Assembly (NCBI GenBank): GCA_963726255.1
Contig: CAVSBL010000002.1
Location: forward strand, 640,001 to 704,000
Direction: 5' to 3'
From: Candidatus Bathyarchaeota archaeon
GTDB lineage: Archaea > Thermoproteota > Bathyarchaeia > 40CM-2-53-6
Length of the DNA stretch: 64,000 nucleotides
Shown: positions 925 to 31,124 of the stretch, piece after piece
How the letters are laid out: each line of letters opens with the position of its first letter
How positions within the stretch are numbered: position 1 is the first letter of the stretch
Notes under the pieces: model-generated
Seen by the model: the letters and a program-made list of their open reading frames with translations, nothing else
Told to the model about the DNA's origin: nothing
Database searches by the model: none
Position numbers and translations under genes: made by a program

Positions 925-966
925 GGGTGGATCCACCCGTCTAGGGGTGGTGCCAAACGGTGCCAA
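925..966 (+). repeat. 42-bp dispersed element, copy 1 (GGGTGGATCCACCC-N9-TGGTGCCAAACGGTGCCAA)
   Basis: Matches 31083-31124 (reverse strand, 40/42) and 2987-3027. Confidence 0.9.
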
Positions 967-1133
967 GAGTTCGGCGTTGCAGATCAGGAAGCTTGGCATG
1001 TTGAGTTGCTCGCCCTCGGATGGAGGGTTGTCACCCGCAGAGCCAAAACATCTACCATGCGGACGTTCAAGCATGGGGAAGCAGCGGCATTGAAGCGAGA
1101 AGCCCACAGCCCATAGGCGTGTGAGGACATCAC
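967..1133 (+). mobile_element. Degenerate IS200/IS605 tnpB 3' end and right end
   Basis: Frame-broken peptide remnants SALQIRKLG..PAEPKHLP..AALKREAH resemble the TnpB C-terminus; AAGCCCACAGCCCATAGGCGTGTGAGGACATCAC resembles an archaeal IS605 right-end hairpin ending in TCAC. Confidence 0.6.
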
Positions 1134-1151
1134 TTTCTTCTTCGCGCCCAG

Positions 1152-1922
1152 CTATCCTGCTGGGCTGGCCGTCTTATTTTCTTCTTCGCCCGGTAAGGGG
1201 AAGTGCGACGGAGCAAACACCTGCGAAGATTCGGGGGGTGTGGTGAGGGGTTGTCCGCGGCCGAGGAAGTTTCGGGCGTCCACTCTTTGGTTCAGGACGC
1301 TGGCTGGAAGCGTGATGAAGGCCGGGGCGCTTCCCGAAGCGAGCACGTGCACCGCGTACAAGTCAAGGGTCGAGAGCATGGGCGGTTGCGAGGCTCGGGT
1401 CGGCGTGGCCATCGGGTCCATTACATCTGAGCTGTCGAGAATGCTTCCTAACCCTAGGACTCGTCCCAGCTCGTGCAGAGCCAGCCAAAATGGGTACTGT
1501 CCTGCCGTTAAGTTATCTGCCACGTTGAAGGTCGCGGGGTCGAGGTATGTCTGGGTTGATTTTATCAACGTCCTTGAGCCGGGCTCAAACTTGTAGTTTG
1601 TCCACCCAACCGCAATCCCTGCATAGGCCTTCGGCATATCGAAGCTAACCTTAGCGTTAGCGGATCCATCGTTCACTTCAACGAACGTGTAAACTGGGCT
1701 GGCAGCGCCCTGCCAGAGCTGAGCCTGGTTCCACGCAACCATCGCGTTCACCACAACATCATGCGCCCACGCCGGGAACTGCGGAACAGAGATGCTGATT
1801 ACAAGCGACGAATAACGGCCGATGATCGGAATCGACGGCTGAGCCGACGCGTGCACTGGAACCGCCAGGGTCAGCAGTAGTAAACCTAGGGTAATGGCGT
1901 ACGCTGAGCTACTTCGTCGCAA
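1152..1922 (-). CDS. Secreted matrixin-like (M10/metzincin) protein with degenerate zinc motif
   Basis: Signal peptide; AMVAWN; LALHELGRVLGLGS followed by Met-turn DVMDP. Confidence 0.75.
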   Translation of the reverse strand: MRRSSSAYAITLGLLLLTLAVPVHASAQPSIPIIGRYSSLVISISVPQFPAWAHDVVVNAMVAWNQAQLWQGAASPVYTFVEVNDGSANAKVSFDMPKAYAGIAVGWTNYKFEPGSRTLIKSTQTYLDPATFNVADNLTAGQYPFWLALHELGRVLGLGSILDSSDVMDPMATPTRASQPPMLSTLDLYAVHVLASGSAPAFITLPASVLNQRVDARNFLGRGQPLTTPPESSQVFAPSHFPLPGEEENKTASPAG

Positions 1923-2042
1923 CTATTGTCTAGATGAATAAGTCTAGTATTCTAGAAATGATGACCGTAACCACACATGGAACACTATGGTGACATTTCT
2001 ACAACAACATACGCTGTAAGCTGCCCGCCCTGGCTTAGGGAA

Positions 2043-2525
2043 TCAAAAGTACCGAAGCGGCGCAGGCTGGGGAATTCCTAGCCGAACAGACATTCGTTTC
2101 CAGATGCTAAGGCGAATGGGAGTATGCACTTCCGAAAGTTTATTGGTCGTTCTATCGAGAGCGAACCATTGCTTCTCATGGCAGGTTTCGCATTCAACCT
2201 CGTTCTCGCCGGTTGCCTTGAGGTTTCGGCATCCGCAGACGCGGCAGGCGACGCGTGTAGCTATGCGCACACTGTCGCTCCGTTCGCGAGATTTTGGGTC
2301 GTCAATTGACCGCAACAGGCTTACGGTTTGAACTGGGGAGATGGCGCCTGGTTTCCGTCGGATCTGCACGTCGGGATATTGTCTGATTTCTATAAACTCC
2401 CATCGGGCCAGGAATTCAACGGTTTGCTTCAGCGTGCTTTCGTCTAGGCCTGAGGTCTGTTTCAGCGTCTCCTGGCTTTCCCATTCCAGTTCGGGTATCG
2501 CTGACCAGACAGATTCGAGGAACAT
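2043..2525 (-). CDS. Hypothetical protein: winged-HTH-like N-terminus plus C4 zinc ribbon
   Basis: ETLKQTSGLDESTLKQTVEFLARWEFIEI; CRVCGC...CETC. Confidence 0.65.
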   Translation of the reverse strand: MFLESVWSAIPELEWESQETLKQTSGLDESTLKQTVEFLARWEFIEIRQYPDVQIRRKPGAISPVQTVSLLRSIDDPKSRERSDSVRIATRVACRVCGCRNLKATGENEVECETCHEKQWFALDRTTNKLSEVHTPIRLSIWKRMSVRLGIPQPAPLRYF

Positions 2526-2722
2526 TATCCCGCAGTCTCAAATACGGGTTAACCCGTGACGGAAGGTAAGTCCACTGTCACTGAAGTTCGTCAACGTCAG
2601 TGTCATAGAACAATCTAGAACACTCGCAACAATCTTCTATATGCGAGTCAACCCCAACTTTGCGCTACCCCGGACGCAAACGCCTAATGGTGCGCCCAAT
2701 TTTCTAGTGGCCCAGATGGTTC

Positions 2723-2968
2723 TTGGCGCGCAGGAACATGCTCCTCCGTCCCGTGGCCTTGACGATGTTCGTTTTCGGCCTGCTAGTGTGGTTCTATGTC
2801 ATCCTAATTCAGGTTACGCATCCTGAATGGCTTCCCGCGCAATTCTCGCACGTGGGCTTTCCACCTTTCAATTGGCGGCTCGACGAGGTCGGTATGCTTG
2901 CATTCGCCGTTGCGATTGCCGGGTTCTTCTTGTGGCAACTCAACGAAACCAAGCCTCGCGCCGGGTAA
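2723..2968 (+). CDS. Small two-TM membrane protein
   Basis: Two hydrophobic segments in an 81-aa ORF. Confidence 0.65.
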   Translation: MARRNMLLRPVALTMFVFGLLVWFYVILIQVTHPEWLPAQFSHVGFPPFNWRLDEVGMLAFAVAIAGFFLWQLNETKPRAG

Positions 2969-2986
2969 TCACGGATTTCGCAGCGT

Positions 2987-3027
2987 GGGTGGATCCACCC
3001 ATAGACGGCTGGCGCCAAATGGTGCCA
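2987..3027 (+). repeat. Dispersed element, copy 2 (GGGTGGATCCACCC-N9-TGGCGCCAAATGGTGCCA)
   Basis: Same palindrome, same 9-nt spacing and same direct-repeat module as copy 1. Confidence 0.85.
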
Positions 3028-3295
3028 CCCATTTCTCCACCGAACAGCGATGACTAGCCCGTTATCCCGAGAAACTTGCTTTGGACGCTGAAACTTTCCC
3101 ACCCTCCCTCAAACGCCCCGTCCGCACGCTCAATCACAAACATAGCAAAGTAACATAGTTGGCTCCAAAAATAGCGCCACCCCCCTACCCCCTCCTCCAC
3201 GCGCAGGCGCACAGCAACCCCTCTCGCCTACGCGAACAAGGTAGCTCAAAACGCGGGGCGCAACGTACCCCAAGAAACTGAGGTGCGAACGTGGC

Positions 3296-3586
3296 CTACT
3301 TCTTTCTTCGGCTGGACGTTCTGCGAGGCGTTTTCGCGGCGGGCTCAGCGCTTACGGGTTCTGTTTCCAGCGGCGCCGGCGGCGGTGTCGTAAGCATCGT
3401 CCAACCAATCCACGCAGATATCACGAGCACGAGCAAGACGAACAGGAGGACGGGTATCCCAATCGCCCACCACTGCCAAGCCGTCGGCAGCCCAAGGAAC
3501 GGGGCGAAGAACGCAACCAGGTAACCAATCGCAACAATAATCGATATGAAGAAGATCACGAAGCCGTAGCCCTGATCCTTACTCAT
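3296..3586 (-). CDS. Conserved archaeal two-TM membrane protein
   Basis: MSKDQGYG...WIGWTMLTTPPP pattern; basic tail. Confidence 0.75.
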   Translation of the reverse strand: MSKDQGYGFVIFFISIIVAIGYLVAFFAPFLGLPTAWQWWAIGIPVLLFVLLVLVISAWIGWTMLTTPPPAPLETEPVSAEPAAKTPRRTSSRRKK

Positions 3587-3652
3587 CGAAACTCACAAGC
3601 TACCCGCGCAACTAGCCGTCGAACCCAATATAAGCTTTAGCAAACCCGCGGC

Positions 3653-5500
3653 TCAATTTAGTTGCTTGTACCCCGGTCTCTGACTGAGTTTAACGGGGAG
3701 CTTCAGCGGGATTGTCGGGTAACCTGTGATGGAAGTGGTTATTTCCTTTTCAAGCTCAGAAACATTCGCATTGTACTGTTTTCCGTCCAGCCGGCGGCGA
3801 ACCGCAACCATGTTCGCGTCGGCTTCCCTTTTTCCTACGACGGCAACGTACGGTATCCAGTTTAGTTCAGCTTCGCGCACACGCTTATCGAGGCTCTCAT
3901 CTCTATCGTCGACATCAGCCCTGACATGCGACGCAGTAAGCTGATCAACCATCTTCTGCGCATAGCCCAAGAACTCAGGCCTAACAGGAACAACTCGGAC
4001 CTGCGTTGGCGACAACCACAACGGCAGGCTCGGCTTGCCACCTCGCTTCTCCGTTCTCGCACACTCATCTAGCACCGTGAAGAGGTAACGTTCAATCGAG
4101 CCAATGATAGCGGTGTGGATTATGGGCGGAAATTCTTTTGCACCTTTCTCATCGACGTACGAGATGGCGAAACGTTTCGCGTTCCCCGTATCGATTTGGA
4201 AAGTCGCAATCTCCCTCGGGCGCTCAAGCTCATCGATTATGTGGTATTCTATGTTGAGAACCCAATAGTAGATACCCTCAGGCACAAAGTTCAGCAGTGC
4301 CGGTTTCCCCTCCCGCTTCACAAGCTTCATCACGTAATCCTTGTGTGACTCAAGGAAGCTCTGGGTAATGTTGTAGACCGAGACATAATCCCTGCCAAGT
4401 TTCCCAATTTCCTCGTAGATTTTATCATGCAACTTCAGCGTCACCTCTTTCGCCTCTTCCAGGTTCTTGCAGTAGATGTGGCAGTCAGGCATGTGCAATT
4501 TCCTCAGCCTAAACGAGAGGAGAAGCTCACCGCTTTGCTCCAAACGGTATGAGTCAGCCACTTCGAAGGTGCCGAACGGTAAGTGCCTGTAGCTCAACGT
4601 CCAATTCCTCACCGCCGCAAACTGCTGGTGGCAGGCAGCATACCGCATGACGAAGCTCTTGTTCTCCACCTCAAGCCTATACAGCCTAGAACCGAACAGG
4701 TCTGCATGCTCCTTCACGGCGGGGACGGCTAGGTCGAACATGTTCGTGCCCTTCACCTGAAGAATTGGTAACCCAACAGAGTTCACCGTACTCCACGAGT
4801 ATTCGCTGATCAGGTCGAAGATCATTACGCCCTCAGGGCTGTAACGCATGTGGCCTACGTCGGAGAAGTTTTCCCATTCGATGCCGAACTTCTTGCAGTA
4901 TTCCAGGTATCGCGGTTCCCCGCCGGGCAACCCTTTCTTGAGCGCCTCCTTCTCCACAAGTGTTCGGAACTCCTCCTCGCCCGCTTTGAACACGTACTCA
5001 TCAGGCTCGTAGAGCTCGCCATCCAACGCGAGAACCTTGTAGAACGTCTTCACCGGCGCAGCCTCCGCCTTAGCCTGCTCAGGCCTAATTGTCCGGGATA
5101 GTTCGGAGAGGGGGTGGCCCAGGCAGTGGAGGCTGAAACTCTTGTAATACCCAAATGGGCTACGGTGAACCTCATAGCTCATCTCGTTAAGGGTCATGCT
5201 CATTTGTTGCAGAATCGAAATCGCGGTGCCCGCGGAGGCTAGGCTGCTTGAAAGGTGGGCGTAGGGGTAGACCAAGATGCGGTTCGTTCTTACGGACTTT
5301 GCTACTTCCGCGATGGATTCCGTAGCTTTCCCGACAACTTCAGCGGGATTCTGCTCGTCCTCCTTCTCAATGGTCGAGAAGGCCACGAGCACGTTCTCAA
5401 ATTTACCAGCACGGTTGTTCTCTAGGGGCTCAGGGTTCTTGACCGCGGTCTGGCGGACTTCGTACTCGAACGATTCGCAATGAAGCAAAAGAAGCCTCAT
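3653..5500 (-). CDS. thrS: Threonine--tRNA ligase, archaeal type with N-terminal editing domain
   Basis: MRLLLLH, VYPYAHLSS, SPFGYYK, HTAIIGSIER, WLSPTQVRV; start set at the ATG overlapping the upstream stop. Confidence 0.95.
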   Translation of the reverse strand: MRLLLLHCESFEYEVRQTAVKNPEPLENNRAGKFENVLVAFSTIEKEDEQNPAEVVGKATESIAEVAKSVRTNRILVYPYAHLSSSLASAGTAISILQQMSMTLNEMSYEVHRSPFGYYKSFSLHCLGHPLSELSRTIRPEQAKAEAAPVKTFYKVLALDGELYEPDEYVFKAGEEEFRTLVEKEALKKGLPGGEPRYLEYCKKFGIEWENFSDVGHMRYSPEGVMIFDLISEYSWSTVNSVGLPILQVKGTNMFDLAVPAVKEHADLFGSRLYRLEVENKSFVMRYAACHQQFAAVRNWTLSYRHLPFGTFEVADSYRLEQSGELLLSFRLRKLHMPDCHIYCKNLEEAKEVTLKLHDKIYEEIGKLGRDYVSVYNITQSFLESHKDYVMKLVKREGKPALLNFVPEGIYYWVLNIEYHIIDELERPREIATFQIDTGNAKRFAISYVDEKGAKEFPPIIHTAIIGSIERYLFTVLDECARTEKRGGKPSLPLWLSPTQVRVVPVRPEFLGYAQKMVDQLTASHVRADVDDRDESLDKRVREAELNWIPYVAVVGKREADANMVAVRRRLDGKQYNANVSELEKEITTSITGYPTIPLKLPVKLSQRPGYKQLN

Positions 5501-5703
5501 GCTGAGAATCTCCACTTGTCCAGTTGCCGGTCCTTGCACGTAAGCTTCTTGAATTCCCGGTAGTGCGTCTTGCACAAGTAAGCTCTGCGAGCGTTGCCTA
5601 TGTTTAGGCCACTATGTGCGACTTTCTCAGTTGAAATAGACCGCGTAGCAGCGTTACTGCAGCCCACGACGCTGCATTGTTGCCCCTTGCCCACCTTGCC
5701 CAT
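5497..5703 (-). CDS. Small basic Cys/His zinc-binding protein
   Basis: CSVVGC...YLCKTHY; ATGA overlap with thrS. Confidence 0.75.
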   Translation of the reverse strand: MGKVGKGQQCSVVGCSNAATRSISTEKVAHSGLNIGNARRAYLCKTHYREFKKLTCKDRQLDKWRFSA

Positions 5704-5769
5704 CGAAATCACGCCCAGAAGGCCAAGGGTGCTTGAAAAACTTGGTTTTTCACGAAACGCCCTTAAGCT

Positions 5770-6396
5770 GTGATTCCCATTTGGCGCACGCTGATTCACT
5801 TGTTAGGCAAGTTCAGGGCGAAGTATGAAGCTGCGATGAAGCCCATCGGCAGCCGGCTCGGGAAATCCGGGTTGAAGCCCAACACAATAACCACTCTGAG
5901 CCTCCTAGTTTCAATTTTGGCTGGTGGCGCTTACGTCCTCAAATCACCCATTCTAGGGGCTCTTGGCCTTGTGGCGGCCGGCTTTATCGATATGCTCGAT
6001 GGGGCAGTCGCTCGCGCAACAGGGACGAGTAGCAAATTTGGGGCTGTATACGATCACGTACTCGATAGGTATGCAGAGTTCGCAGTTCTCCTTGGTATCG
6101 GGCTCGGAGGGTTCGTGGGCTGGCCGTGGATAGTCTTCGCACTTTTCGGAATGGTGATGGCCAGTTACACGAGGGCGAAAGCCGAGTCGGTTGGGGGCCT
6201 CTCAAGCTGTACCGTAGGCATCGCGGAGCGCCAGGAAAAGATAATTCTACTGCTAATAGGTTCAGTGCTTCAGCCATACGTTAACGTGGCGCTCACCTTC
6301 AGCACGATTGCGGTGGGTTTATTGTCGCACGTGACCGTGGTCCAGAGACTTCACTACACACTCAAACAAACTCGAGGCCAAAACGTTGCACTATGA
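5770..6396 (+). CDS. CDP-alcohol phosphatidyltransferase (archaetidylinositol phosphate synthase-like)
   Basis: DMLDGAVAR...GAVYDHVLDR; SYTRAKAE. Confidence 0.92.
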   Translation: MIPIWRTLIHLLGKFRAKYEAAMKPIGSRLGKSGLKPNTITTLSLLVSILAGGAYVLKSPILGALGLVAAGFIDMLDGAVARATGTSSKFGAVYDHVLDRYAEFAVLLGIGLGGFVGWPWIVFALFGMVMASYTRAKAESVGGLSSCTVGIAERQEKIILLLIGSVLQPYVNVALTFSTIAVGLLSHVTVVQRLHYTLKQTRGQNVAL

Positions 6397-7315
6397 TCTG
6401 GTAGGCATCGGCAATCCCGTGTATGACATCATCGTCACCCCCTGGACCAAAACAAACGGCCGAGTTCTTTCAGGATGCAGTACCAACGCTTGCCTTGCGG
6501 CGAAACGGCTTGGCATGGAGAAAGTGGGCTTAGTCGGATGCATTGGCCCAGACTTTGCGCGAAGATTTGCGGATGACATGAAGAACTTTCACTTAGACTC
6601 CAGAATGGAGGTCGGCGGGACGGAGACGGGTGGGTTCCACCTCATCTACGATGAAAACGGCAATAGGACCCTGGACGTTCTGGGCGTGGCCGGAAAAATA
6701 ACGCCAGAGAACTTTCCGAAGGAGTTCTTGGATGCGGAATACCTATTGATCGGCCCAATCCTCGGCGAAGTAAACGTTGAGCTTCTCCAGTTCATACGCT
6801 CGTCCAGTTCCGCAAGAATATTCCTGGACCCGCAGGGCTTGATCAGAGTAGTCGGAAAGGACAGGCGCATCGACCATCAATGCAACAAAGACGAATTTCA
6901 CAAAATTAGCAAGTTAGTTGACTTTGTCAAACCGAACGAGCACGAGAGTGAAACCATAACCGGAGAAAGGGACCCTGTACTCGCCCTCCGCAAACTAGGG
7001 GATATGGCGAAGGGCGTGCCCATGGTTACGCTTGCGGAAAAAGGGTCTCTACTAATGAATGCTGATAGGCTGTATCGAATCCCACCCTATCCCACACATG
7101 CTACCGACCCCACAGGCGCGGGAGATGTTTACGCCGGCTCCTTCATCACTGAATACAAGAAAAGTGGCAGTCTCCCAGAGGCCGCCCTCTTCGCCTCGGC
7201 CGCAGCATCAATAATGGTCGAACAAACTGGGCCTGATTTCAAGATGCCCCTGGATGAGGTGCTGGAAAGAAAGGAAGCGATCCGCGGTCGTCTGACCGTG
7301 GAGCGGCTGGCTTAG
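6386..7315 (+). CDS. PfkB family carbohydrate kinase
   Basis: KPNEHE, DPTGAGD. Confidence 0.92.
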   Translation: MHYDLVGIGNPVYDIIVTPWTKTNGRVLSGCSTNACLAAKRLGMEKVGLVGCIGPDFARRFADDMKNFHLDSRMEVGGTETGGFHLIYDENGNRTLDVLGVAGKITPENFPKEFLDAEYLLIGPILGEVNVELLQFIRSSSSARIFLDPQGLIRVVGKDRRIDHQCNKDEFHKISKLVDFVKPNEHESETITGERDPVLALRKLGDMAKGVPMVTLAEKGSLLMNADRLYRIPPYPTHATDPTGAGDVYAGSFITEYKKSGSLPEAALFASAAASIMVEQTGPDFKMPLDEVLERKEAIRGRLTVERLA

Positions 7316-7587
7316 TAGAAGTGCCTTTCGTCTCTCGATCTTACCTTCGTAAGCCCGAAGTGTACAGCGCAGGAGACGCAGTAGAACTTGACGACTCGCT
7401 GCCGTGCGATGTACGTCCCGTGGGAACGCAGTTCACGTGCAAGGGACGGTTCCACCAACGAAATCCATTGCGTGTCGCGCTTAGCCTTGTCCCTAGGAAC
7501 TGGCCTACCACAGTTAGTGCACTGAATCATCTCGCTCCGCCCCTTACCTCCCTTACTTCGGCCGCGAGATTTTCTCTTCTTCGTCAA
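7312..7587 (-). CDS. rps26e: 30S ribosomal protein S26e
   Basis: KKRKSRGR..CTNCGRPVPRDKA..YCVSCAVH. Confidence 0.95.
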   Translation of the reverse strand: MTKKRKSRGRSKGGKGRSEMIQCTNCGRPVPRDKAKRDTQWISLVEPSLARELRSHGTYIARQRVVKFYCVSCAVHFGLTKVRSRDERHFY

Positions 7588-7662
7588 ACCTTATCCTCCA
7601 CCGTAAACTCGCGTCTGCCGTGCTTAAACGTTGTTGTGGGTGCTAGGCGTGGGTTGGAGCGA

Positions 7663-9113
7663 CTAGTAAGATTTCGCGAAGTATGCAACCTTCGCAGTAG
7701 GATTTTCGCAATAGATGCAGCTTGAGAATGGCTTCTCCTCGACGAGAGGAATAGTGCGTATAGTAGCCCCTGTCTCAGTCTTTATCGCCTCTTCGCACTC
7801 GCCTCGCCCGCACCAGCATGCCCTCACGAATCCCCGCGGACATTCAACGTTTTCTTGAATTGCGCATAGTCACTTGCTTGGGTTATTGAATCGGTGAGTG
7901 CTGACTTAGCCTTAGAGAAGAGAGCCTTCTGAATCTCGTCGAGGCATCTCTGAACTTCACCAACGATGGCGTCATCTTTGACCGTGAGCTTCTGCAGGTT
8001 GTCGCGCCGGACCAATGTCACTTGTTTCTTCTCAACGTCCTTCGGCCCGATTTCCATCCTAAGCGGGACCCCCTTGAGCTCCCATTCGTTGAACTTCCAC
8101 CCAGGCGTGTACTGTTCACGGGAGTCCACATGCACCGCCAGGCCAGCCTTCCTTAACTGGTCAGCAGTTGATCGAACCTTTTCCGAAACCGTTTCAGCCC
8201 GCTCAGTCTTGTAGTATATGGGAACGATGACAACTTGAATCGGAGCAATTCGAGGCGGCACGACCAATCCCTTGTCGTCGCTGTGAAGCATGATCATCGC
8301 GCTGATCAGCCGCCACGAGACACCCCAAGAGGTTGTCCAAGCATAGTGGGTCTGCTCGTCTTGCCCTAGGTATTTGATCTCGAAGGGCTTCGAAAAGTTC
8401 TGCCCGAGGTTGTGTGACGTACCCATCTGCATTGCTCTGCCATCCGGCATGATTGCTTCAAGGGTTGTCGTGTAGAGGGCTCCAACGAACTTCTCTTTCT
8501 CGCTTTTATACCCGAGCAGAACTGGGGCCGCCATCTGCTCCTCGACCAGCTCCCGGTAGAATTCCAGTATCATCATGACCTCCTTGTCCGCATCTTCTTT
8601 AGTAGCGTGCACAGTGTGGCCTTCCTGCCAAAGGAACTCAGAGGTTCTGATGAAGGGTCGAGTAGCAGTAATCTCAGACCGCAGTACCGAGTTCCAGAGG
8701 TTAATCAACAGCGGTAGGTCTCGCCAGCTTCGAACCCATTTCGAATACGCGTCGTTGACTATGGTTTCAGATGTGGGACGAACCGCGAGCCGTTCGGAGA
8801 GCTTATTCTCTCCTGCCTCCGTTACCCAGAACACTTCCGGGGTGAAACCTTTGAAGTGCTCAGCTTCCTTCTTGAGGTAACTTTCCGGAATGAAAAGCGG
8901 GAAGTAAGCGTTCGAGTGCCCGGACTCCTTCAGCCTCCCGTCCAACCACTCCTTAATTTTCTCCCATATCGAATACCCATAGGGCCGAAGAACCATGAAA
9001 CCCTTCATCGGAGCGTAGTCAGCAAGTTCTGCCTTAGTCACTACCTGTGTGTACCATTCCGAAAGGTCCTCAGCCTTCTTCACAGTAATGCCAATTTCCT
9101 TACTCAACACCAA
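7663..9113 (-). CDS. proS: Proline--tRNA ligase (one-base frameshift near 7832-7835)
   Basis: RPTSET, EFLWQEGHT, GTSHNLG; the C-terminal GGFVRACWCG...CIYC..YFAKSY* continues in another frame to 7663. Confidence 0.93.
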
Positions 9114-22970: not shown

Positions 22971-23036
22971 ACACATTCCCCGGTGCGGGAGCCAACAGTT
23001 TAACTATCCAGGTTACTCGTTGCGCTCGGATGACTC

Positions 23037-24062
23037 TTGGCGAAAAGCGTCGCTTTGATCAAAGGGGACGGAACTGGCCCTGAACTTATCGATGCGACCC
23101 TGAAAGTCTTGAAGGCCGTTGGCACGAACGTGGAAATTCTTGCGTGCAACGCAGGCTTTGAATGGTGGCAGGCCCACGGTGGGGCAACACTGGTGCCGGA
23201 TGAGAGTTGGAAGATAATCGAAGCCGCGGACGCGTGCTTGAAAGGCCCAACAACGACACCTGCTGGCCCGAACACTCCGCGGAGTGTGGCAGTTAGTATT
23301 CGTCAGCGTATGAATCTCTACGCGAACATTCGGCCTGTGAAGACGTTTGAGGGAACGAAACGGCCGCTCGGCGATGTGGAGCTCGTTTGCGTTCGTGAGG
23401 GTACTGAAGGCCTCTATTCAGGAATCGAACATCGCCTATCGAATGATGTCGCCATCGCCTTCCGCAAGATCACTCGTGAGCCAAGTCAGAAGCTCGCTAA
23501 GCGGGCTTTTGAGGAAGCGAAACGGCGAGGGTGGAAACGCTGCATCGCCATCACGAAACAGAATATACTGAAGGAAACGGACGGGCTCTTCATGGATGCA
23601 ACGAGGACCGTGCACAAGGATTACTCTGGGATCAGTTTGGAGGAGTATTTCATAGACAACTTTGCGCAGCAACTTATCAAGAACCCGCAGCGTTTCAATG
23701 AGAGCATCATATTCGGAACGAACCTTTTCATGGACATAATCTCCGAAGAGGTCTCAGCGCTGGTTGCGAGCATCGGGTGCATATACTCCGCGAACTTCGG
23801 GGATAATTACGCAATGTTTGAGCCGGCACATGGAAGCGCTCCGGCTTACAAAGGCCAGGACAAGGTAAACCCCACGGCAACGGTGCTAGCAGGCGCCTGG
23901 ATGCTGGAACACCTAGGCGAGAAGAAGAAATCTGAAGCCATATTCAGAGCAACCCGCGATGTCATCGCGGAAGGAAAGAAAGTAACGTACGACCTCGGTG
24001 GCACTGCCCGCCTCTCAGAAATGGCCGACGCCATAGCTGAACGCGCACAAAGATACCTGTGA
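23037..24062 (+). CDS. Isocitrate/isopropylmalate dehydrogenase family
   Basis: GDGTGPE, KGPTTTP, REGTEG, FEPAHGSAP. Confidence 0.93.
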   Translation: MAKSVALIKGDGTGPELIDATLKVLKAVGTNVEILACNAGFEWWQAHGGATLVPDESWKIIEAADACLKGPTTTPAGPNTPRSVAVSIRQRMNLYANIRPVKTFEGTKRPLGDVELVCVREGTEGLYSGIEHRLSNDVAIAFRKITREPSQKLAKRAFEEAKRRGWKRCIAITKQNILKETDGLFMDATRTVHKDYSGISLEEYFIDNFAQQLIKNPQRFNESIIFGTNLFMDIISEEVSALVASIGCIYSANFGDNYAMFEPAHGSAPAYKGQDKVNPTATVLAGAWMLEHLGEKKKSEAIFRATRDVIAEGKKVTYDLGGTARLSEMADAIAERAQRYL

Positions 24063-24133
24063 ATACTCAACCGTTTTGACGACTAGATGCTCCCCCAATA
24101 AAGTTAGGCAAGCCAAGCAGTTGACAACAAGGA

Positions 24134-24622
24134 CTAAGGTCCGCCGCTCTTCGTCGAACGTTCAAAGGCCTCAAACCAAGTCTTGTTCTTCCCGGCAAAT
24201 TCGACGAATTTAGCGATGCGGTCGATGGTTGCTTCGTGGACGTGGTGTTCAATCCCTTCGGCATCTGAATTCGCAATGTTCTCGCTTACACCAAGAATCC
24301 GAAGAAACTGAGTGATGACAAGGTGGCGTTGTTCCACTGAACACGCCAAGCGTTTGCCTCTTTCGGTTAGCGTAGTTCCCCGATAGCGCTCGTAGACTAC
24401 TAGCCCCATCCCGTGGAGCCTTTGCAGCATGTTTGTAACGCTTGGCGACTTGACGCCTAGGTACTCAGAAATGTCAACCGACCGAGCGTATCCCTTCTCT
24501 TTCATCAATTCGTAGATGACTTCTAGGTAGTCTTCCACGCTCGACGTAAGATCTGAAGACGGCTTTCTAGCCTCCCGGAGTCGTGACAGAATATAGCTAG
24601 TCTGCCTTTTCTCAATCGGCAT
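24134..24622 (-). CDS. DtxR/MntR metal-dependent regulator
   Basis: EDYLEVIYEL, PSVTNML, DAEGIEHH. Confidence 0.92.
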   Translation of the reverse strand: MPIEKRQTSYILSRLREARKPSSDLTSSVEDYLEVIYELMKEKGYARSVDISEYLGVKSPSVTNMLQRLHGMGLVVYERYRGTTLTERGKRLACSVEQRHLVITQFLRILGVSENIANSDAEGIEHHVHEATIDRIAKFVEFAGKNKTWFEAFERSTKSGGP

Positions 24623-24750
24623 CGTGCGCGCCTCAACATACCTGTCCAAGGCTCCTGCTTTATAGCTCCGCCATCTCAAAGCTGCTTGCAGGCATGACGC
24701 GGCACGCAAATACCTATTTGCCTGCACCTTCGTTAGCAGAATGGACACAC

Positions 24751-24951
24751 ATGTCGAAGCCGGCACAAAAAAAGACTGACTTCCCCGACGAGGAAATTGA
24801 AGACATATTGGACATGCATGCGCCTATCGACCTGTTGCGAGAGTTCCGCAAAGCAGCTCAAGAAAGCCCGCTGCTGGTGACAGGATTGGCCTTTGCGTTC
24901 GGCTTGCTTATCGGCGCCTCGTTATCTAATGGGAACAAGAAATCCCGTTGA
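24751..24951 (+). CDS. Small tail-anchored protein, DUF883/ElaB-like C-terminus
   Basis: QESPLLVTGLAFAFGLLIG. Confidence 0.6.
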   Translation: MSKPAQKKTDFPDEEIEDILDMHAPIDLLREFRKAAQESPLLVTGLAFAFGLLIGASLSNGNKKSR

Positions 24952-24977
24952 CGTTCATATCATGAGGCAGCAGTAAT

Positions 24978-25199
24978 TTGTCGAAAAGGGAAAAAGACCT
25001 GGAGCCCGAGAAGACCGAGCAATACCTAAAGGAACTCCGAAAAGACATGGACAAACGGTTAGGCGAACTCAAGGTGCAGATGGACGATCTTCAACAAAGA
25101 GCCGCACAGAAAGTTACGGAACAGCCCCTGATAGCCCTTGGCGTCGCTTTCGTGGCCGGCATGGCACTAGGAGTTGCGTTATCGAGGGCCGGCGACTAG
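24978..25199 (+). CDS. ElaB/YqjD/DUF883-like protein
   Basis: Charged helix then EQPLIALGVAFVAGMALG. Confidence 0.7.
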   Translation: MSKREKDLEPEKTEQYLKELRKDMDKRLGELKVQMDDLQQRAAQKVTEQPLIALGVAFVAGMALGVALSRAGD

Positions 25200-25210
25200 G
25201 AGACCAGACA

Positions 25211-25510
25211 TTGCCAGAAAAGGAAGGTTCCACATTGTTGGAGAGGCTCGCGCGATTGGTTCTGCGAGAAGCCTTGGGCGGCATCGTCAAACCTGCGGAA
25301 AGATTGGCAAAACGGGTTGCTCGGGCCGTCGGACTGATTCTTGCCGGAGTCGTCATCTCTGTTCTTGGAATCGCGTTTCTGGCCGTAGGTGCTGTCAAGT
25401 GGTTGGCGATATTGATGCCTGTTTGGCTGGCCTGGTTCTTGGTCGGAATAATCCTCTTCTTAGCGGGTGTTGCAGTCACAGCAATAACGTTCTCGACCGG
25501 GCGTGGCTAA
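25211..25510 (+). CDS. YqjE/holin-like two-TM protein
   Basis: Amphipathic helix then two TMs with PVWLAWFLVG; follows DUF883-like genes. Confidence 0.6.
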   Translation: MPEKEGSTLLERLARLVLREALGGIVKPAERLAKRVARAVGLILAGVVISVLGIAFLAVGAVKWLAILMPVWLAWFLVGIILFLAGVAVTAITFSTGRG

Positions 25511-25531
25511 GACGGCGTCGAAGCTTCTTGC

Positions 25532-25912
25532 CTAGCTAACATGGCCGGTCTTACTCTCGTAGAATTCATCCACAAACCGAGAAAAATCGCTGAAGTTGCT
25601 CAAAACGACGCCAAACGAGGAGCCTTTATCGATAGAGACGACCTTTTCGAGATACGCCTTTGCTGAAGTTGGGTCGCCTTCGTAAAGCGCAAGTTTGGCC
25701 GCGCTGGCAAATCGATTCATTGCCACGACTGAATTCCCGTTTTTCAGTAGATTTTCAGCTGCAGACGCAATTGCCTTGCTGTTCGGATACTGCGCCACGA
25801 GCAAGTCTGGATTAAGCAGGACTAACGTAGCGGCGGCGCGTTTCTTATCTTCACTCAGTTTCAGCTTTTCGGCGATGCTTTCGAAGGAATCGTAGCTCAC
25901 CTGTGGCACCAT
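25532..25912 (-). CDS. Hypothetical helical (TPR-like) protein
   Basis: AAKLALYEGDPTSAKAYLEKV. Confidence 0.65.
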   Translation of the reverse strand: MVPQVSYDSFESIAEKLKLSEDKKRAAATLVLLNPDLLVAQYPNSKAIASAAENLLKNGNSVVAMNRFASAAKLALYEGDPTSAKAYLEKVVSIDKGSSFGVVLSNFSDFSRFVDEFYESKTGHVS

Positions 25913-25952
25913 TCCTATACTTTGCAGGGCTGTTGTGATACTGAGAAACTAC

Positions 25953-26834
25953 TTAATTGTTCTTGCCGAACTGTGTTATGCCAACGCCCAACATTGTTAA
26001 GCCGGAGAAGGCAATATCGAGGGTTGTGAAACTTTCCTTTAAGACGATGACAGATATCAAAACGGCCAGAACGGGCATCGTGAAGAGAAGAACGTAGAGC
26101 CGAAACACTTCAGTACGCTGAAGGACATCATACCAACATACAAGCCCCAGACAGTACATGAAGGAAAGAAGCAATAGTGCCACTATGACCTCGTTCGACA
26201 ATGCCGCCGGCCACTGGTTCCTCTCGAAGACAAACGCGGAAAACGTGAACAATGCGGCACCGAAAACAAATGTTAGTGTTACTACGAACATCGGTTGGTA
26301 TTTCTTCAGTAAGACCTTCCCAACGATTCCAGACAGAGCGTAAGATGCTGCAACTCCCACTTGAAGCACGTTTCCGACAAATACCGACCCAGCAAGATTC
26401 GCGAGATTGCCTCCGGTCGAAAGAAGGATTACGCCAAGCATCGCAACCATCACACCTGCTACTTCTCTCCGCCCGACCTTCTCCTTTAGGAGGGTGAAAG
26501 AGAGCAGCAACGTGAAGACTGGGGTAATCGATTGGAGGACGCCACTCATGGAGGCGGTGGTGTACTCGAGCCCAATGTTCTGCAGCAGGTTGGGCATGAA
26601 TATCTGAGCAATTGACAAACCAAACACGATCGATAGGTCGTGCTTCGTCACGCCCGATGTGCTTCCGCGGTAGTGAAAGAGAGTCAGTGGCACGATTAGA
26701 GATGACGCCAAATCGAATCGGAGCGCCGCCACCGTAAGCGGTGGCAATTCTGTAAGGGCAATTCGTATCAAAGCATATGCGGAGGCAAAAACAAACAGGG
26801 CTATTACGCTTTCAACAAAGTTGCGGAAGCTCAA
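25953..26834 (-). CDS. EamA/DMT family transporter
   Basis: PPLTVAALRF, GLEYTTAS, LLKEKV; about 10 TM. Confidence 0.92.
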   Translation of the reverse strand: MSFRNFVESVIALFVFASAYALIRIALTELPPLTVAALRFDLASSLIVPLTLFHYRGSTSGVTKHDLSIVFGLSIAQIFMPNLLQNIGLEYTTASMSGVLQSITPVFTLLLSFTLLKEKVGRREVAGVMVAMLGVILLSTGGNLANLAGSVFVGNVLQVGVAASYALSGIVGKVLLKKYQPMFVVTLTFVFGAALFTFSAFVFERNQWPAALSNEVIVALLLLSFMYCLGLVCWYDVLQRTEVFRLYVLLFTMPVLAVLISVIVLKESFTTLDIAFSGLTMLGVGITQFGKNN

Positions 26835-26912
26835 GTTAGGACATCAATTCTGCCCGGTGCACGCACGCGATAGCATTAGCCCGAACGGGAAATCTAATCA
26901 TCAAAAGCTGTG

Positions 26913-27230
26913 TCAGGGAGGCGAACTGGGCTCATTTGACAGAAACCTGATAACCTTTCCCGGGCCGAGCTTCTCGACCACGACTTTCCTCTCGTCTTCA
27001 TTCAACGGTTTGTATTTGAGGTGAGTATCGGTGGAGCTTGCATAGCGCCCTGCGACCAAGCACGCGTTGGCATTCTTCTCCTTGTAGATGGTTATGGGTT
27101 TGTGAACGGCTTCCGGGTCGGTCCCCGCATACATGTAGGCGATTGCATCTTCATACTTCGCTTTGTCCTCGATCCTAAGTAATACGAGCTGTGAATCGTC
27201 GGGTTTCATGTTTTGCTCAGTATCGGCCAA
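26913..27230 (-). CDS. Hypothetical protein
   Basis: 105-aa ORF filling the gap, protein-like composition. Confidence 0.6.
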   Translation of the reverse strand: MADTEQNMKPDDSQLVLLRIEDKAKYEDAIAYMYAGTDPEAVHKPITIYKEKNANACLVAGRYASSTDTHLKYKPLNEDERKVVVEKLGPGKVIRFLSNEPSSPP

Positions 27231-27335
27231 ACGTAAAAACCCTTCCAGAGGAAATTGCCCGCATGAGAGAGAGGGCCAGAGGCGCCACTGATCACTTCAG
27301 AGCCGTTTTTGCCGCAAACGTCAAACCGCAAGTTG

Positions 27336-27483
27336 TGGAGCCGGGGATGGGAATTGAACCCACCTCAGCGATTCTCGCTTTCTATACTGCGGGTTGCGGC
27401 AAGCTTTAGTCTACTGCAGCCCGCCGCCTGGACCGTTCGGCCTTCGGTGGCCATAGGCATCAAACCCAAAGACCAACCCCGGC
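27336..27483 (-). tRNA. tRNA-Cys(GCA) with three insertions (8/9, 37/38, variable loop/T-stem junction)
   Basis: Acceptor GCCGGGG/CCCCGGC, U73-CCA; anticodon stem GCGGG/CCCGC with CT-GCA-G; T-loop GGTTCAATTCC; inserts 27443-27475, 27395-27413 and about 20-22 nt near 27363-27385. Confidence 0.85.
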
Positions 27484-27561
27484 ATTTTCCCCGGCGAATG
27501 AACCGTTCACGCACATAGCTCTAATAAACCTGCACGTAAAGCTGTAATTCGCCGATGGTTC

Positions 27562-27891
27562 TTGAGTCATGTGATGTCGATGGTTGATTCGCAAGAAGAC
27601 CAGGTGCCGCTGTTCTTCAAGTTATGTTCGGATCACCTTTCAATTGAAGCCATCCCAAGAAAAGCTCTTACTATCAACATCGAAGGCATGAAGGATAAGT
27701 CGATCCGCGAGCACGAAGTGATGATGTGGACTCCCCATTTTGTTGTGCTGAAGAATTCGAGCGGACAGGAGATTACTCTTAGGCGAGATGGGCGAATGGT
27801 AGTAAGAAAAGCGGATACAGAACAGGTTGCGCGAGAGGCCGCCACGAACGTTATGCATTTAGCCTTGAAAGAGTTCGGAAGCCGAGCCTAG
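27562..27891 (+). CDS. Stand-alone homolog of the MoeB/ThiF C-terminal domain
   Basis: LC..P.K.L.I...H.V...TP..VV...G.E.TL.R.GRM aligns by eye to the neighbouring MoeB C-terminus. Confidence 0.7.
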   Translation: MSHVMSMVDSQEDQVPLFFKLCSDHLSIEAIPRKALTINIEGMKDKSIREHEVMMWTPHFVVLKNSSGQEITLRRDGRMVVRKADTEQVAREAATNVMHLALKEFGSRA

Positions 27892-28517
27892 ACGGTCAGA
27901 ACACGAGCGGACTGAACGGCCCTTGCAACCATGCCGTCAATGTCCAATGCCGTTTCGACCTCGGCTAGTCGGTTCCTCCTGGCTGAGGTGCTTGGGTTGT
28001 CTGTTGGAACTCCGCAGCTAGCGACCCCTGGGCGGATTGAAACTTCATAAGTACCAATTTCAATTGCGAACTTCACGATTTGCTGCTTGTTCATTCCGAC
28101 AAGTGGCCTAAGCACCTGAACCTTATTCAGCACACAGTCTGCCGCTACGATGTTTTGGAGCGTTTGGCTGGCCTTCTGCCCGACAGCGTCACCTGTGACA
28201 ATTGCGTTACACCCCTCCCGGTCGGCTATTCCTTCGGCAACTCTAAACATGATCCGCCTGGAAAGCATGCACGCGAACTTCGCCGGACACTTGGACAAAA
28301 TAACTTGGAGGTCAGGCGCGTGAGAGACAACGTATACGCGTGCCCCCTGAAGTTTTGCTCGCTCGCACAGCCTGCGAACAGTTTCTATGGCAAGGCTTTC
28401 GGCTGCTTGGTCGCAGAGTGGGTAATTATCGAAATAAACGAAAACCGGTTCTACGCCTTTCCTCATCAATAACCATGCTGCGACTGGGGAATCGATACCG
28501 CCGGAAATGAGGCACAC
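27888..28517 (-). CDS. ThiI-type PP-loop sulfurtransferase, catalytic domain only (no THUMP)
   Basis: LISGGIDSPVA, VTGDAVGQKASQTL, RPLVGMNK, IGTYE; in-frame stop about 22 codons upstream. Confidence 0.88.
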   Translation of the reverse strand: MCLISGGIDSPVAAWLLMRKGVEPVFVYFDNYPLCDQAAESLAIETVRRLCERAKLQGARVYVVSHAPDLQVILSKCPAKFACMLSRRIMFRVAEGIADREGCNAIVTGDAVGQKASQTLQNIVAADCVLNKVQVLRPLVGMNKQQIVKFAIEIGTYEVSIRPGVASCGVPTDNPSTSARRNRLAEVETALDIDGMVARAVQSARVLTV

Positions 28518-28583
28518 GGCTCTCCCGGAAAGTCTGAGTTCCGGGGATTCTATTGTTTGTGGAGACTGTAGCGACAGTTTCTT

Positions 28584-29618
28584 TCACCCTTCACCGACCA
28601 GCTTGGCGACCTCGGCTGAAATTGCGAGTGCCTCTATCTCGTTTCGTACGTTCTTGATCAGCATCCGCCCTTTCCTAAATAGACTTACTTCATGCCCACT
28701 GAAGTCGAAGACGATAACCATTGGCGTCGTCAATAATACCCTGTGGTTTCGCCCGATAGTTCTAGCCAGTTGGTCCAGGTCAACGGATAATGGCTTCTCC
28801 GGGTTGACATTCGCAGTCTCTGATCCGCACAACCAGGCCAACTTACGAGAATAGTTTGGTGTAGTAGTCAGCTTTGCCTGGCAGACTCCACAGTCAGCAC
28901 GGATGCTCAACCTCACTGTTCGATATTCAGACTGCGCGAAATCGAATATCAGCAGTCTTCCCATCGATTGGGGGTCGATTCCCGCAAGCGCCTTCACTGC
29001 CTCCATCGCCTGAATAGCTCCAACAATTCCAGTGGTAGCACCCAGCACACCGCGAGTATCGCAAGTTGGCAGGTCCACGTCGTTCAGACCCGGCAAGATA
29101 CACTCTAAACATGGGGTTTCAGGGCTCTTGAATACTGCTACGTTCCCTTCCATCCCGATTGCCCCCCCAAAGACGAACGGTGTCTTCCTCGTCACGCAAA
29201 AACGGTTGATAATGTACCGCGTTTCCATGTTGTCAAGCCCATCCACAACGCAATCTGCTCCATCTAAGATCGCCGGGACGTTCTCGGCATTCAAGTTCTC
29301 TGGGACGGGATTGACTTCAACCTCAGGATTGATCATACCAATTCTGCGTGCAGCAGCTTCTACCTTCGGATACCTGATATCGCCTAGCGAATAGAGAACC
29401 TGCCTGTGCAAATTGTTTACTTCTACAGTATCTTGATCTATGAGCGTTAGTTTTCCGACACCTGCGAGCGCAAGGTAGAGCGCTGAAACACTTCCCAAGC
29501 CACCTAATCCCACAACGGCAACTTTCGAGTCATGCAGTTTCTTTTGGCCGCTCGAACCGAGTTCCTTCAGAACCAATTGCCGACTGAAGAACTCATCTCT
29601 GTCGAAATCTGCGTGCAT
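28584..29618 (-). CDS. MoeB/ThiF/UbaA family adenylyltransferase
   Basis: FSRQ, GLGGLG, NLHRQ, DGLDN, CLEC, TCDTRGVLG, CGVC. Confidence 0.93.
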   Translation of the reverse strand: MHADFDRDEFFSRQLVLKELGSSGQKKLHDSKVAVVGLGGLGSVSALYLALAGVGKLTLIDQDTVEVNNLHRQVLYSLGDIRYPKVEAAARRIGMINPEVEVNPVPENLNAENVPAILDGADCVVDGLDNMETRYIINRFCVTRKTPFVFGGAIGMEGNVAVFKSPETPCLECILPGLNDVDLPTCDTRGVLGATTGIVGAIQAMEAVKALAGIDPQSMGRLLIFDFAQSEYRTVRLSIRADCGVCQAKLTTTPNYSRKLAWLCGSETANVNPEKPLSVDLDQLARTIGRNHRVLLTTPMVIVFDFSGHEVSLFRKGRMLIKNVRNEIEALAISAEVAKLVGEG

Positions 29619-29671
29619 CTGTTGCTCACGCCAAAATATGGCAACGCGGGCTTTCAGTGTATAGGCGCGTT

Positions 29672-30892
29672 TCAAGAATAGAAGGGTAGTCCTAGCTTGG
29701 CAAGCCTGTATTTGAAGTACGGCCACGCCAATTTGGCTCGCACGTCCCGATACCGTAACGACCCATCCATCAATCCCACCATGCACTCCTGCACTTTCCG
29801 TTCTGAGAAGAAGAATTTGGCAACTCGTTCCATGTCATATTGCTCCAAGTAGCTGAAACAGGCAACACGGCATGCAACATCGAAATCGATCCCGAAGGCC
29901 TTTCGGCAACGTCGACCGTAACGGCCGAGAAAGCCCTTATCAAACCGACCCTTTTGGCATGCTTCTTCGGCTGTTTGTGCCGCGATCTGTCCACCCAATA
30001 TCGCGAAATAAATGCCCTCCCCGAGAAGGGGCTCGGCAAATCCGCCTGAATCGCCAGCGAGCAGAATCCTATTAGTAGCCAAAGGCACTTTGGCAATGCC
30101 GCCAAGCGGAATCAAATGAGCTTGTGGCCTCGGAACTTTTCGCCCACGCAGCTGAGGGATTTGCTTCACAAACCCATCGAACAGAGCGTGCGCATCACGA
30201 AGCCTGCTCAGGCGGCAACCCACCCCGACCGTCAGATGGTTGTCCTTTGGGAAAACCCAGCCGTACCCGGCAGCGGAGACGCCGAAGTATATGTCAAAAT
30301 AAGATTCGGGGCCAACGAAATCCTGTACACCTGTCTCTCCAACAGGAACTTCGCTTTCGATAGCGTAGGCGACTTCGTGGGGTTTCCACCGATCATAGAG
30401 CTGCCCATAACCTGCGGTTGGGCCACCCATCCCATCAGCACCGATAATCAGCCTTCCTTCAAATGAGCCATGGGAAGTTTTCACTTGAATATGAGAGTCG
30501 TTTGTTTCAATTCGCTGTGCAGGAGTTCCATCTTTGAGTTCTGCGCCAGCCTCCACAGCCTTGTCGGCTAAGAATGAGTCCAACCTGGTGCGAGAAGTCA
30601 TATAGACAAGCGTGCGGTCCGATTCGAAGTTGAAGCAATCTTCGTCGACATGAATTCGTGTCGACCTGGCAGTATATTCGATGAGTTCGTCAGGTAGGCT
30701 GAAGCCGAGTAATTTGATGACCTTAGGAGTAACGCCCCCGCCGCACAATTTGCTTCGCGGCAGCTTATCTTTCTCGAGTAGGAGAGTTTTCAGTCCGAGT
30801 TGGGCAGCGGTCCTCGCGGCTGAAGCACCTGCAGGCCCTGCTCCGACAACGATCAGGTCGTACAAGCGAATCTTTGCTCGACGCTGTAACAT
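29672..30892 (-). CDS. Geranylgeranyl reductase family flavoprotein
   Basis: GAGPAG, KLCGGG, GYGWVFPK, GDSGG..GEGI. Confidence 0.9.
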   Translation of the reverse strand: MLQRRAKIRLYDLIVVGAGPAGASAARTAAQLGLKTLLLEKDKLPRSKLCGGGVTPKVIKLLGFSLPDELIEYTARSTRIHVDEDCFNFESDRTLVYMTSRTRLDSFLADKAVEAGAELKDGTPAQRIETNDSHIQVKTSHGSFEGRLIIGADGMGGPTAGYGQLYDRWKPHEVAYAIESEVPVGETGVQDFVGPESYFDIYFGVSAAGYGWVFPKDNHLTVGVGCRLSRLRDAHALFDGFVKQIPQLRGRKVPRPQAHLIPLGGIAKVPLATNRILLAGDSGGFAEPLLGEGIYFAILGGQIAAQTAEEACQKGRFDKGFLGRYGRRCRKAFGIDFDVACRVACFSYLEQYDMERVAKFFFSERKVQECMVGLMDGSLRYRDVRAKLAWPYFKYRLAKLGLPFYS

Positions 30893-31082
30893 TCTGCATT
30901 GTAGAGTGAGCGACAAATTAAGAGATTTTCCTGGACCTGAGGGTGCAAGCCCAAGTTATTATCATGAGTAATTCGGAAAGGAACCATACTTTAGGAATCG
31001 AAGGATTCAATTTGCTCCCGGGTCTGTAGATCGCTTCGTATTAGGGGATCGGGGCGTAAAATGAAGCGAGAGTTACCTGAGT

Positions 31083-31124
31083 TTGGCACCGTTTGGCACC
31101 ACCCTTCGACGGGTGGATCCACCC
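31083..31124 (-). repeat. Dispersed element, copy 3 (inverted)
   Basis: TTGGCACCGTTTGGCACCACCCTTCGACGGGTGGATCCACCC; 40/42 identical to the reverse complement of 925-966. Confidence 0.9.

Follow-up and report, generated by a model that had tools for sequence, protein, structure and literature searches.

As described in a review (PMC7986276), the IS6 family of insertion sequences (ISs) is abundant in archaea, has GG tips, makes 8-bp direct repeats and includes two transposable elements of the miniature inverted-repeat kind (MITEs); its members are ~0.8 kb long (700-890 bp), with a single open reading frame (ORF) of 213-254 aa and terminal inverted repeats (TIRs) bearing the motifs cTGTt/caaa. 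Here we analyse a repeated motif, a palindrome followed by direct repeats, in a 64-kb stretch of the genome of a Candidatus Bathyarchaeota archaeon (contig CAVSBL010000002.1, positions 640,001-704,000; hereafter the window). On balance, the motif is probably the conserved core of a lineage-restricted, MITE-type family of short non-coding interspersed repeats. Like IS6-derived MITEs, this family is short, non-coding and multi-copy, and in one related genome it has GG tips, 8-bp duplications and ends common with a transposase-bearing IS in trans. Unlike them, it has an interior that is not derived from the IS and is better conserved than the ends, and the ends are wholly missing in most carrier genomes.

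Two other kinds of repeat invite comparison. The SM elements of Sulfolobus are also non-autonomous archaeal elements relying on the transposase of a resident IS, and they are defined by IS-like ends, whereas here an internal 42-bp module is shared by sub-families with unrelated arms. The repetitive extragenic palindromes and bacterial interspersed mosaic elements (REP/BIME) of enterobacteria, with their RAYT proteins, are likewise intergenic palindromic units that form mosaics with other modules and fall into genome-specific subfamilies. The present family differs from them in its archaeal host, in having direct repeats beside the dyad, and in the absence of a Y1 (RAYT) gene and of any 3'-end bias.

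An initial annotation of the window had taken the motif for the end or attachment site of a cargo-moving system acting in trans. In the best-supported reading of our results, it was right that the motif is part of mobile DNA moved in trans, that it keeps accessory company and that one copy meets a truncated tnpB, and the motif is not a cassette end or an attachment site.

Anatomy and distribution of the motif

The motif reads GGGTGGATCCACCC (a 14-bp palindrome)-N9-TGGYGCCAAAYGGTGCCA. Direct reading of the sequence confirms three copies in the window, a number far above chance, all of them between ORFs as the initial annotation had claimed (Table 1); the length of 42 bp given there includes one extra A, the pattern itself being 41 nt. 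Also borne out are the extension of the palindrome by C:G in copy 1 and T:A in copy 2 and the recurrence of GGYGCCA at a 10-bp period. The spacer, which had been described as varying in sequence at a fixed length, is indeed 9 nt in the three window copies; elsewhere it is 9-10 nt, and its sequence is not free, the last three to four letters being G in most copies and the second letter T in 10 of 10 aligned copies. Within the window the 14-mer has three exact matches. With up to two mismatches allowed, 100 shuffles of the window gave a mean of 0.32 palindromes, and three were reached in 1 of the 100.

Viewed as boxes, the core consists of three TGG-NN-CCA sites, each with dyad symmetry, whose centres are separated by 20 and 10 bp. 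Two palindromes overlap within it, GGGTGG-AT-CCACCC and CCACCC-N6-GGGTGG, the second of which is a perfect 18-mer in the related genome G013. Left arm, spacer and right arm together form an 11-6-11 inverted repeat, TGGATCCACCC-N6-GGGTGGTGCCA, with symmetry at 9 of 11 positions.

The window's genome (G000; 2.42 Mb in 5 contigs, 51% G+C, 98.5% complete and rated 9% contaminated) carries a full-length archaeal small-subunit ribosomal RNA gene (1,466 bits). The motif is not special to the window, as a genome-wide scan finds a lineage-restricted dispersed family. G000 contains 10 exact palindromes and 4 one-mismatch places, against 1 in the reversed control, and 11 strict motif copies, or ~19 if variants are included. 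A generalised direct-repeat pattern gave 25 matches over the two strands, at ~19 places, and 1 in the reversed genome. In variant sub-families the architecture is retained but the centre dinucleotides are changed (AT, GA, CT/AG or TG, by subfamily), as in GGGTGGGACCACCC followed by TGGGACCATTTGGTACC.

Relatives' genomes were read in fetched pieces, and the assemblies of G021 and several carriers are drafts. With G000 counted, 7 of 41 genomes contain the strict pattern, and none of the 18 outside the genus does; of 105 genomes from the order, 7 carry a relaxed composite pattern, and these are all of one genus, with controls at 0 everywhere. Relaxed-pattern copies number 11 in G000, 2 in G004, 1 in G011, 22 in G013, 7 in G014, 11 in G015 and 10 in G021. 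Apart from G000 there are six carriers, and five of these are the genomes most closely related to it (74-93% DNA identity around thrS); the sixth, G013, is 70% identical to G000 there and no closer than several non-carriers. Spacers are genome-specific, and the same few variants recur at unrelated, non-orthologous loci. In G013, 18 of the 22 copies have CTCGAG, a uniformity that marks a recent burst. The family is multi-copy, intergenic and confined to the seven related genomes, and close relatives differ by presence or absence of copies; the element at C2:408569 of G000 is missing at the orthologous G015 and G014 sites. Full-text literature searches found no description of the motif or of such repeats in these archaea.

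The repeats are modular. Of the 12 family-A copies that G000 contains, 7, copy 3 among them, have a core that opens a repeat of ~110-130 nt with a second conserved module, the tail; at copy 3 this repeat runs ~65 nt past the direct repeats, an extension absent from the initial annotation. Copies 1 and 2 have the core only. Contigs of other copies mapped on copy 1 break off at 919-925 and 959-966, which shows that the core edges are sharp, and orthologous G015 and G014 loci differ by a 52-nt tail set directly after the core.

Element ends and a partner insertion sequence

In G013 the motif lies centrally in a 185-187-bp MITE, five copies of which align end to end with TIRs of 11-25 nt (the tips match at 11 of 11 positions, and the repeats reach ~22-25 nt). 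The tip, GGTAACGTCAA, has 28 matches in that genome, mostly paired ~187 nt apart. Among the 11 elements with both tips at all fetched loci, the 8-bp flanks agree at 8/8 positions in five, 7/8 in three, 6/8 in two and 2/8 in one, two of the 7/8 cases looking like a single locus on two contigs. In these elements, the only ones with defined ends, the motif is interior and the ends are marked by the TIRs and 8-bp duplications, which contradicts the proposal that it is itself an end or attachment site.

The same ends bound DNA without the core in G017. One such element is 585 bp long. The other is an autonomous partner (L095:846-3689, on G017:C3) of 2,844 bp, with 25-nt inverted repeats, a GGTAAC tip and the target duplication TTACGTAA on both sides; its right end matches that of the MITE at 22 of 25 positions. 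Its ORFs encode a 387-aa DDE transposase, a 265-aa protein of no family and a 207-aa protein with a weak Peptidase_C39-like match. The transposase has an N-terminal zinc domain and matches Pfam DDE_Tnp_IS240 (5.9e-14, 52.8 bits against a cut-off of 27) and NCBIfam IS6 (1.4e-31, 110 bits, under the cut-off of 125). At this length, and with three ORFs and a 387-aa transposase, the partner is much larger than classical IS6 members, and its TIRs lack the cTGTt/caaa motifs; because its size and ORF count do not fit the family, we call it IS6-like.

Of the 23 genus genomes, 20 contain homologs of the transposase, and most single tip matches in the other genomes lie within 0.4-3.5 kb of one. Since the ends of the G013 MITE match those of the G017 IS, dispersal in G013 appears to have taken place on the outer ends and in trans, which bears out the earlier placing of the motif in mobile DNA moved in trans. 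For the family as a whole, dispersal would likewise depend on an IS6-like transposase acting in trans on the outer ends. The system offers a worked example that combines a MITE, its partner IS, a target duplication and a burst in one genome.

Several points weigh against a MITE-type origin of the family: (i) The interiors of MITEs are normally not better conserved than their ends. (ii) Beside the G000 cores no match to the tip was found with up to one mismatch, and neither TIRs nor 8-bp duplications could be defined for any G000 copy. (iii) The insertion or deletion (indel) that contains copy 2 carries only a 3-bp repeat. (iv) Across genomes the core joins at least seven kinds of left arm and at least four kinds of right arm, at sharply defined edges. 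(v) One palindrome in G021 is interrupted at its exact centre by a 59-nt arm, which has a copy of the duplicated GGTGGATC on either side. This arm, the arm mosaic and the turnover of the spacer described below are unexplained by simple transposition and decay. (vi) The partner IS has no core, so the G013 MITE consists of its ends wrapped round a pre-existing core-plus-tail unit and may be a secondary capture of an older element with its own way of spreading.

If the family did arise as a MITE, the outer ends in G000 would have been lost to decay or replacement, and the three copies in the window would be relics, of core plus tail at copy 3 and of the core only at copies 1 and 2. G000 has nine matches to the IS6-like transposase; two are long, and these show no convincing inverted repeats at their ends. 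Two cores have a transposase fragment nearby, the one at C2:1170242 at a distance of 1.1 kb and the one at C2:1061742 at 1.4 kb. Elsewhere in this genome, at C2:1889454-1889481, two tips are placed back to back and only 7 nt apart (GGTAACGTCAA...TGACGTTACC), as a minimal element or else as a footprint.

Conservation of the core and competing explanations

Conservation was assessed in copies sampled through the tail, which avoids core bias (a 27-nt tail piece with 49 matches in 6 genomes, 30 of them fetched). The core is present in all 30 tail-ascertained copies. Mismatches to the consensus amount to 14/420 (3.3%) in the palindrome, 15/540 (2.8%) in the direct repeats, 45/270 (16.7%) in the spacer, 62/660 (9.4%) in the linker and 120/540 (22%) in the distal tail. 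Across 10 pairs of orthologous copies from G000 and G021, differences affect 9/340 arm positions and 17/61 spacer positions, and three pairs differ at 3-4 of 6 spacer positions despite flanks that are ~85-97% identical. The core appears to be kept by selection, with divergence growing with distance from it. The spacer turnover might come from mutagenesis in hairpin loops, from conversion of short patches between copies or from abortive strand exchange; spacer inversion was rejected, as the reverse complements do not match by eye.

Most likely, the core would be kept as double-stranded DNA for a putative dimeric protein at the three TGG-NN-CCA boxes, with the 6 bp between boxes presumably free and hypermutable; holding two overlapping palindromes, it could alternatively extrude as a cruciform. 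The oddity of the family is that evolution keeps the interior of the element and not its ends, in a core that resembles a platform for protein binding and is hypervariable at its centre.

By fold energy, the copies do no better than shuffles (z -0.1 to -2.6). RNAalifold on 26 copies predicted 16 pairs with 0 compensatory changes, a count that says little either way because nearly all pairs are invariant, and an Rfam covariance-model search of 11 loci with E up to 1 gave 0 matches. By crude ORF calls, 35 cores lie between convergent (11), divergent (9), co-directional (8) and opposite (4) genes or in undetermined contexts (3), and in these 35 we found no fixed distance, strand bias or 3'-end preference relative to genes. 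With no better folds, no compensatory pairs, no Rfam match and mixed orientation, a role as DNA is favoured. The initial annotation had named a transcription-factor operator as its alternative, and no fixed distance to promoters of stable genes was found. A sigma-54-like reading of TGGCAC-N5-TGGC was rejected as the host is archaeal, and a C/D-box reading of the variant-family spacers was set aside as family A lacks such boxes.

The surroundings of the core were compared at 14 G021 loci against G000 (BLAST pieces of at least 150 nt, E<=1e-20). At 7 of the 14 (L030, L035, L077, L078, L079, L081 and L083), at least 1 kb is present in one genome only or synteny is lost, mostly within ~250 nt of the core; L018, L024, L040, L064, L072, L080 and L082 are collinear. 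A 40-kb background (window 8001-48000) is otherwise collinear with G021, with no indel of at least 1 kb and three of ~0.2-0.7 kb besides contig ends. Since this control is one stretch and G021 is fragmented, the enrichment is suggestive and not measured. Within the background stretch, at 33478-38725, a 0.7-kb indel relative to G021 is followed by 4.3 kb at 81% identity in a region otherwise at 94-97% (ORF 36644-38722).

The extra DNA encodes PIN/antitoxin pairs at copy 1 and at C2:2091091, and at C2:1061742 it has Mrr-like genes together with others of unknown function. The segments are bounded by 42-nt or 67-nt direct repeats or by 22-38-nt inverted repeats (with a ~10-bp duplication), not by the motif; copy 1 provides one repeat-bounded case, described below, and C2:2088993-2091004, with 67-nt repeats and two PIN pairs, a second. 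The copies had been placed at junctions between accessory and core genes, and of this the enrichment beside variable DNA stands, while the borders of the segments prove to be other repeats. Some copies adjoin PGK, SRP54, topoisomerase, L40e and similar genes, so most cores lie in ordinary core intergenic DNA. The cores act as practical signposts for genome plasticity and assembly breaks, at which relatives differ by toxin-antitoxin or restriction-like cassettes.

Indels and breaks at half of these loci against none in the background would also be expected if the motif were a recombination or attachment site, at which a trans-acting recombinase would swap strands within the spacer or at the palindrome centre and shuffle flanks and cassettes. 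The hypervariable spacer between fixed arms fits such a site, as do the recurrence of spacer variants in non-orthologous copies, the re-assortment of left and right arms exactly at the core edges, the arm inserted at the palindrome centre in G021 and the centre dinucleotide that differs among subfamilies. The core adds an accessory box to its 11-6-11 inverted repeat, and the layout of the latter is that of dif sites as given in a review (PMC8371274). We nevertheless regard this explanation as unlikely. Profiles for Y1_Tnp (PF01797), Phage_integrase (PF00589) and Resolvase, which are positive in 6, 14 and 12 of 14 control genomes, respectively, have 0 matches in the 98.5%-complete G000. Of the 23 genus genomes, 19 have tyrosine recombinases, and these bear no relation to the motif; their absence is therefore a feature of G000, which appears to be without any Xer-type enzyme. 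The earlier remark that no recombinase lies in the window thus holds, and genome-wide there is also no detectable tyrosine or serine recombinase or Y1 transposase. A search for transposases and integrases around the cores gave one weak rve_3 match among 110 ORFs at 16 G000 loci and none among the 90 ORFs that flank 25 copies from six other genomes. Furthermore, the core lies inside the only element type whose ends are proven, the borders of the variable segments are other repeats at 60-180 nt from the core, G021 shows no inversion at copies 2 and 3, and no contig has a joint that links copies 1 and 2.

Known recombination sites resemble the motif in part. It shares its layout with dif, and the pdif sites of Acinetobacter plasmids, which bound gene modules, are also multi-copy and lie near small accessory modules that include toxin-antitoxin genes. 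Neither shows sequence likeness to the motif, G000 lacks the Xer-type recombinase, and the modules here are not bounded by the motif; dif is single copy, whereas the motif has 11-19 copies in G000. Integron attC sites differ in that G000 has no tyrosine recombinase and in that the copies are dispersed, not arrayed. There is a small chance that the core, with its dif-like 11-6-11 repeat and accessory box, is a working strand-exchange site of a recombinase missed by current profiles. If so, strand exchange, whether abortive or complete, within the 6-bp spacer and at the palindrome centre would explain the spacer turnover, the clean re-assortment of arms, the arm at the palindrome centre and the toxin-antitoxin and restriction-like cassettes clustered at the cores, and an unrecognised recombinase would be implied.

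We attach a similarly low probability to a host protein-binding site (an operator, or a site for nucleoid or chromosome architecture) that spread through its host function and hitch-hiked on the MITE in one genome. Conservation of the core 3-7 times better than that of adjacent parts of the repeat, the three helically phased dyad boxes and the retention of copies at orthologous G000/G021 sites are what such a site would show. Against it, the copies keep no fixed distance or orientation to genes, and their restriction to 7 of 23 genus genomes means that no conserved host process depends on the motif. Copy numbers of 1-22, genome-specific subfamilies and one spacer in 18 of 22 G013 copies form a burst-like pattern.

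A structured small RNA or single-strand hairpin element of the IS200/IS605 (PATE/omega-RNA) or REP/RAYT kind is highly improbable, for although two hairpins can be drawn (the second needs G:U pairs and forms on one strand only), a neighbouring hairpin module has compensatory changes between loci and copy 1 is fused to a tnpB 3' end, the folds are shuffle-like, without compensatory pairs in 26 copies or an Rfam match, there is neither orientation bias nor a Y1 transposase, and only copy 1 touches a tnpB remnant, the two intact tnpB genes of G000 (not near any core) and the G011 and G008 tnpB fragments being without the motif.

The three loci in the window

Table 1 Positions of the motif copies and associated features in the window.
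Feature	Positions	Strand	Description and basis
Core copy 1	925..965	+	Palindrome 925-938, spacer GTCTAGGGG 939-947, direct repeats TGGTGCCAAACGGTGCCA 948-965; no tail
Core copy 2	2987..3027	+	Palindrome 2987-3000, spacer ATAGACGGC, repeats TGGCGCCAAATGGTGCCA to 3027
Core copy 3	31084..31124	-	Read from 31124 down to 31084; spacer GTCGAAGGG, repeats TGGTGCCAAACGGTGCCA
Tail of copy 3, second conserved module of the repeat family	31017..31083	-	BLAST extent, alignment and tail-based census (C2:671035-671061)
Left arm of copy 1, which recurs along with the core in G014 and G015	878..924	+	Window 878-966 compared with relatives
tnpB 3'-end remnant and downstream (right-end) sequence, joined directly to the core	967..1133	+	89-91% identity to G011:C8 and G008:C19
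Hairpin-containing 42-nt direct repeat, right copy	1144..1185	+	Left copy at C2:639266-639307, 1,878 bp upstream and outside the window; 93% identity
68-nt stretch holding copy 2, missing at the orthologous site in G021	2970..3037	+	Alignment; 3-bp repeat CAC on both sides

Copy 1 is flanked by genes for a MazE-type antitoxin (536-766, -) and a peptidase-like protein (1152-1922, -). Its left arm and core together match G014:C13, G015:C2:730276 and G014:C7 at 84-89%. The truncated tnpB that the initial annotation saw beside it is real: the block that follows the core corresponds to the 3' end of a G011 tnpB and its downstream sequence, and the G011 ORF (L066:1534-2166, -) matches OrfB_IS605 and a Cas12f1-like TNB domain. 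The remnant near copy 1 was missed by Pfam and by tblastn with the genome's own two TnpBs. In three genomes the block is ~165-167 nt long and sharply bounded, and the sequences downstream of it at the three loci are unrelated, as expected if it encodes an omega-RNA scaffold followed by a locus-specific guide. The possibility that the motif is the left end of a tnpB element was rejected, as the G011 and G008 tnpB fragments share only a 600-bp, 5'-truncated piece with no motif.

Copy 1 and the tnpB remnant are part of a 1.88-kb segment, from 692 nt before the window to 1143, that also holds two toxin-antitoxin pairs. The 42-nt direct repeats at its borders each contain a hairpin with a 7-bp stem and a T-rich run. 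The segment is absent from G021, where L078 joins both flanks via a single copy of the repeat. In G014 (L069:1542) the same left arm and core, plus a tail, stand before the same peptidase gene; judging from this arrangement, the core is probably ancestral at the copy 1 site and G021 probably lost the segment. Excision of 925-2987 had been suggested earlier, and no contig of four DNA runs skips that interval (window 1-6000); such contigs cannot reveal rare forms, and among those examined none had a joint at a core.

A 77-nt stretch at 427-505, directly behind the PIN toxin gene near copy 1, recurs at 83-92% identity in at least 8 genus genomes. It represents a second dispersed repeat family, at many unrelated places, and is followed by GTTACC...GGTAAC at 503-521.

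At copy 2 there is an empty site of the kind that the initial annotation had looked to for support, in G021, and a metagenome contig spans the 68-nt stretch intact. The site is rearranged in G015 and G004. Copy 2 is the most divergent copy, with its own spacer and the first repeat TGGCGCCA, and has no near-identical twin in the genome; the difference may therefore reflect either a recent insertion or a precise deletion in G021. Copy 3 and its tail are collinear with G021 (L024), and G015 and G014 have unrelated sequence instead. The inversion of 3027-31083 proposed earlier was not seen, as G021 contigs run straight across the copy 2 and copy 3 sites.

At two loci in relatives, L036 and L021 (G015:C1:830183 and G004:C28:28272), a stretch on the other strand beside the core and the small hairpin module resembles, by eye only, the T-arm, acceptor strand and CCA of a tRNA. 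ARAGORN reports no tRNA there, and a tRNA scan of 15 loci gave none; in a whole-genome run with introns allowed, the program made many implausible long-intron calls and was used solely for tRNA 3' ends.

One further observation in G000 concerns a gene for a ParA/NUBPL-type iron-sulfur carrier that contains an intein (L053:527-2842, corresponding to C2:1205920-1208235). Its 772-aa ORF has an Intein_splicing match, and the orthologs fetched from G015 and G014 are ~330 aa long.

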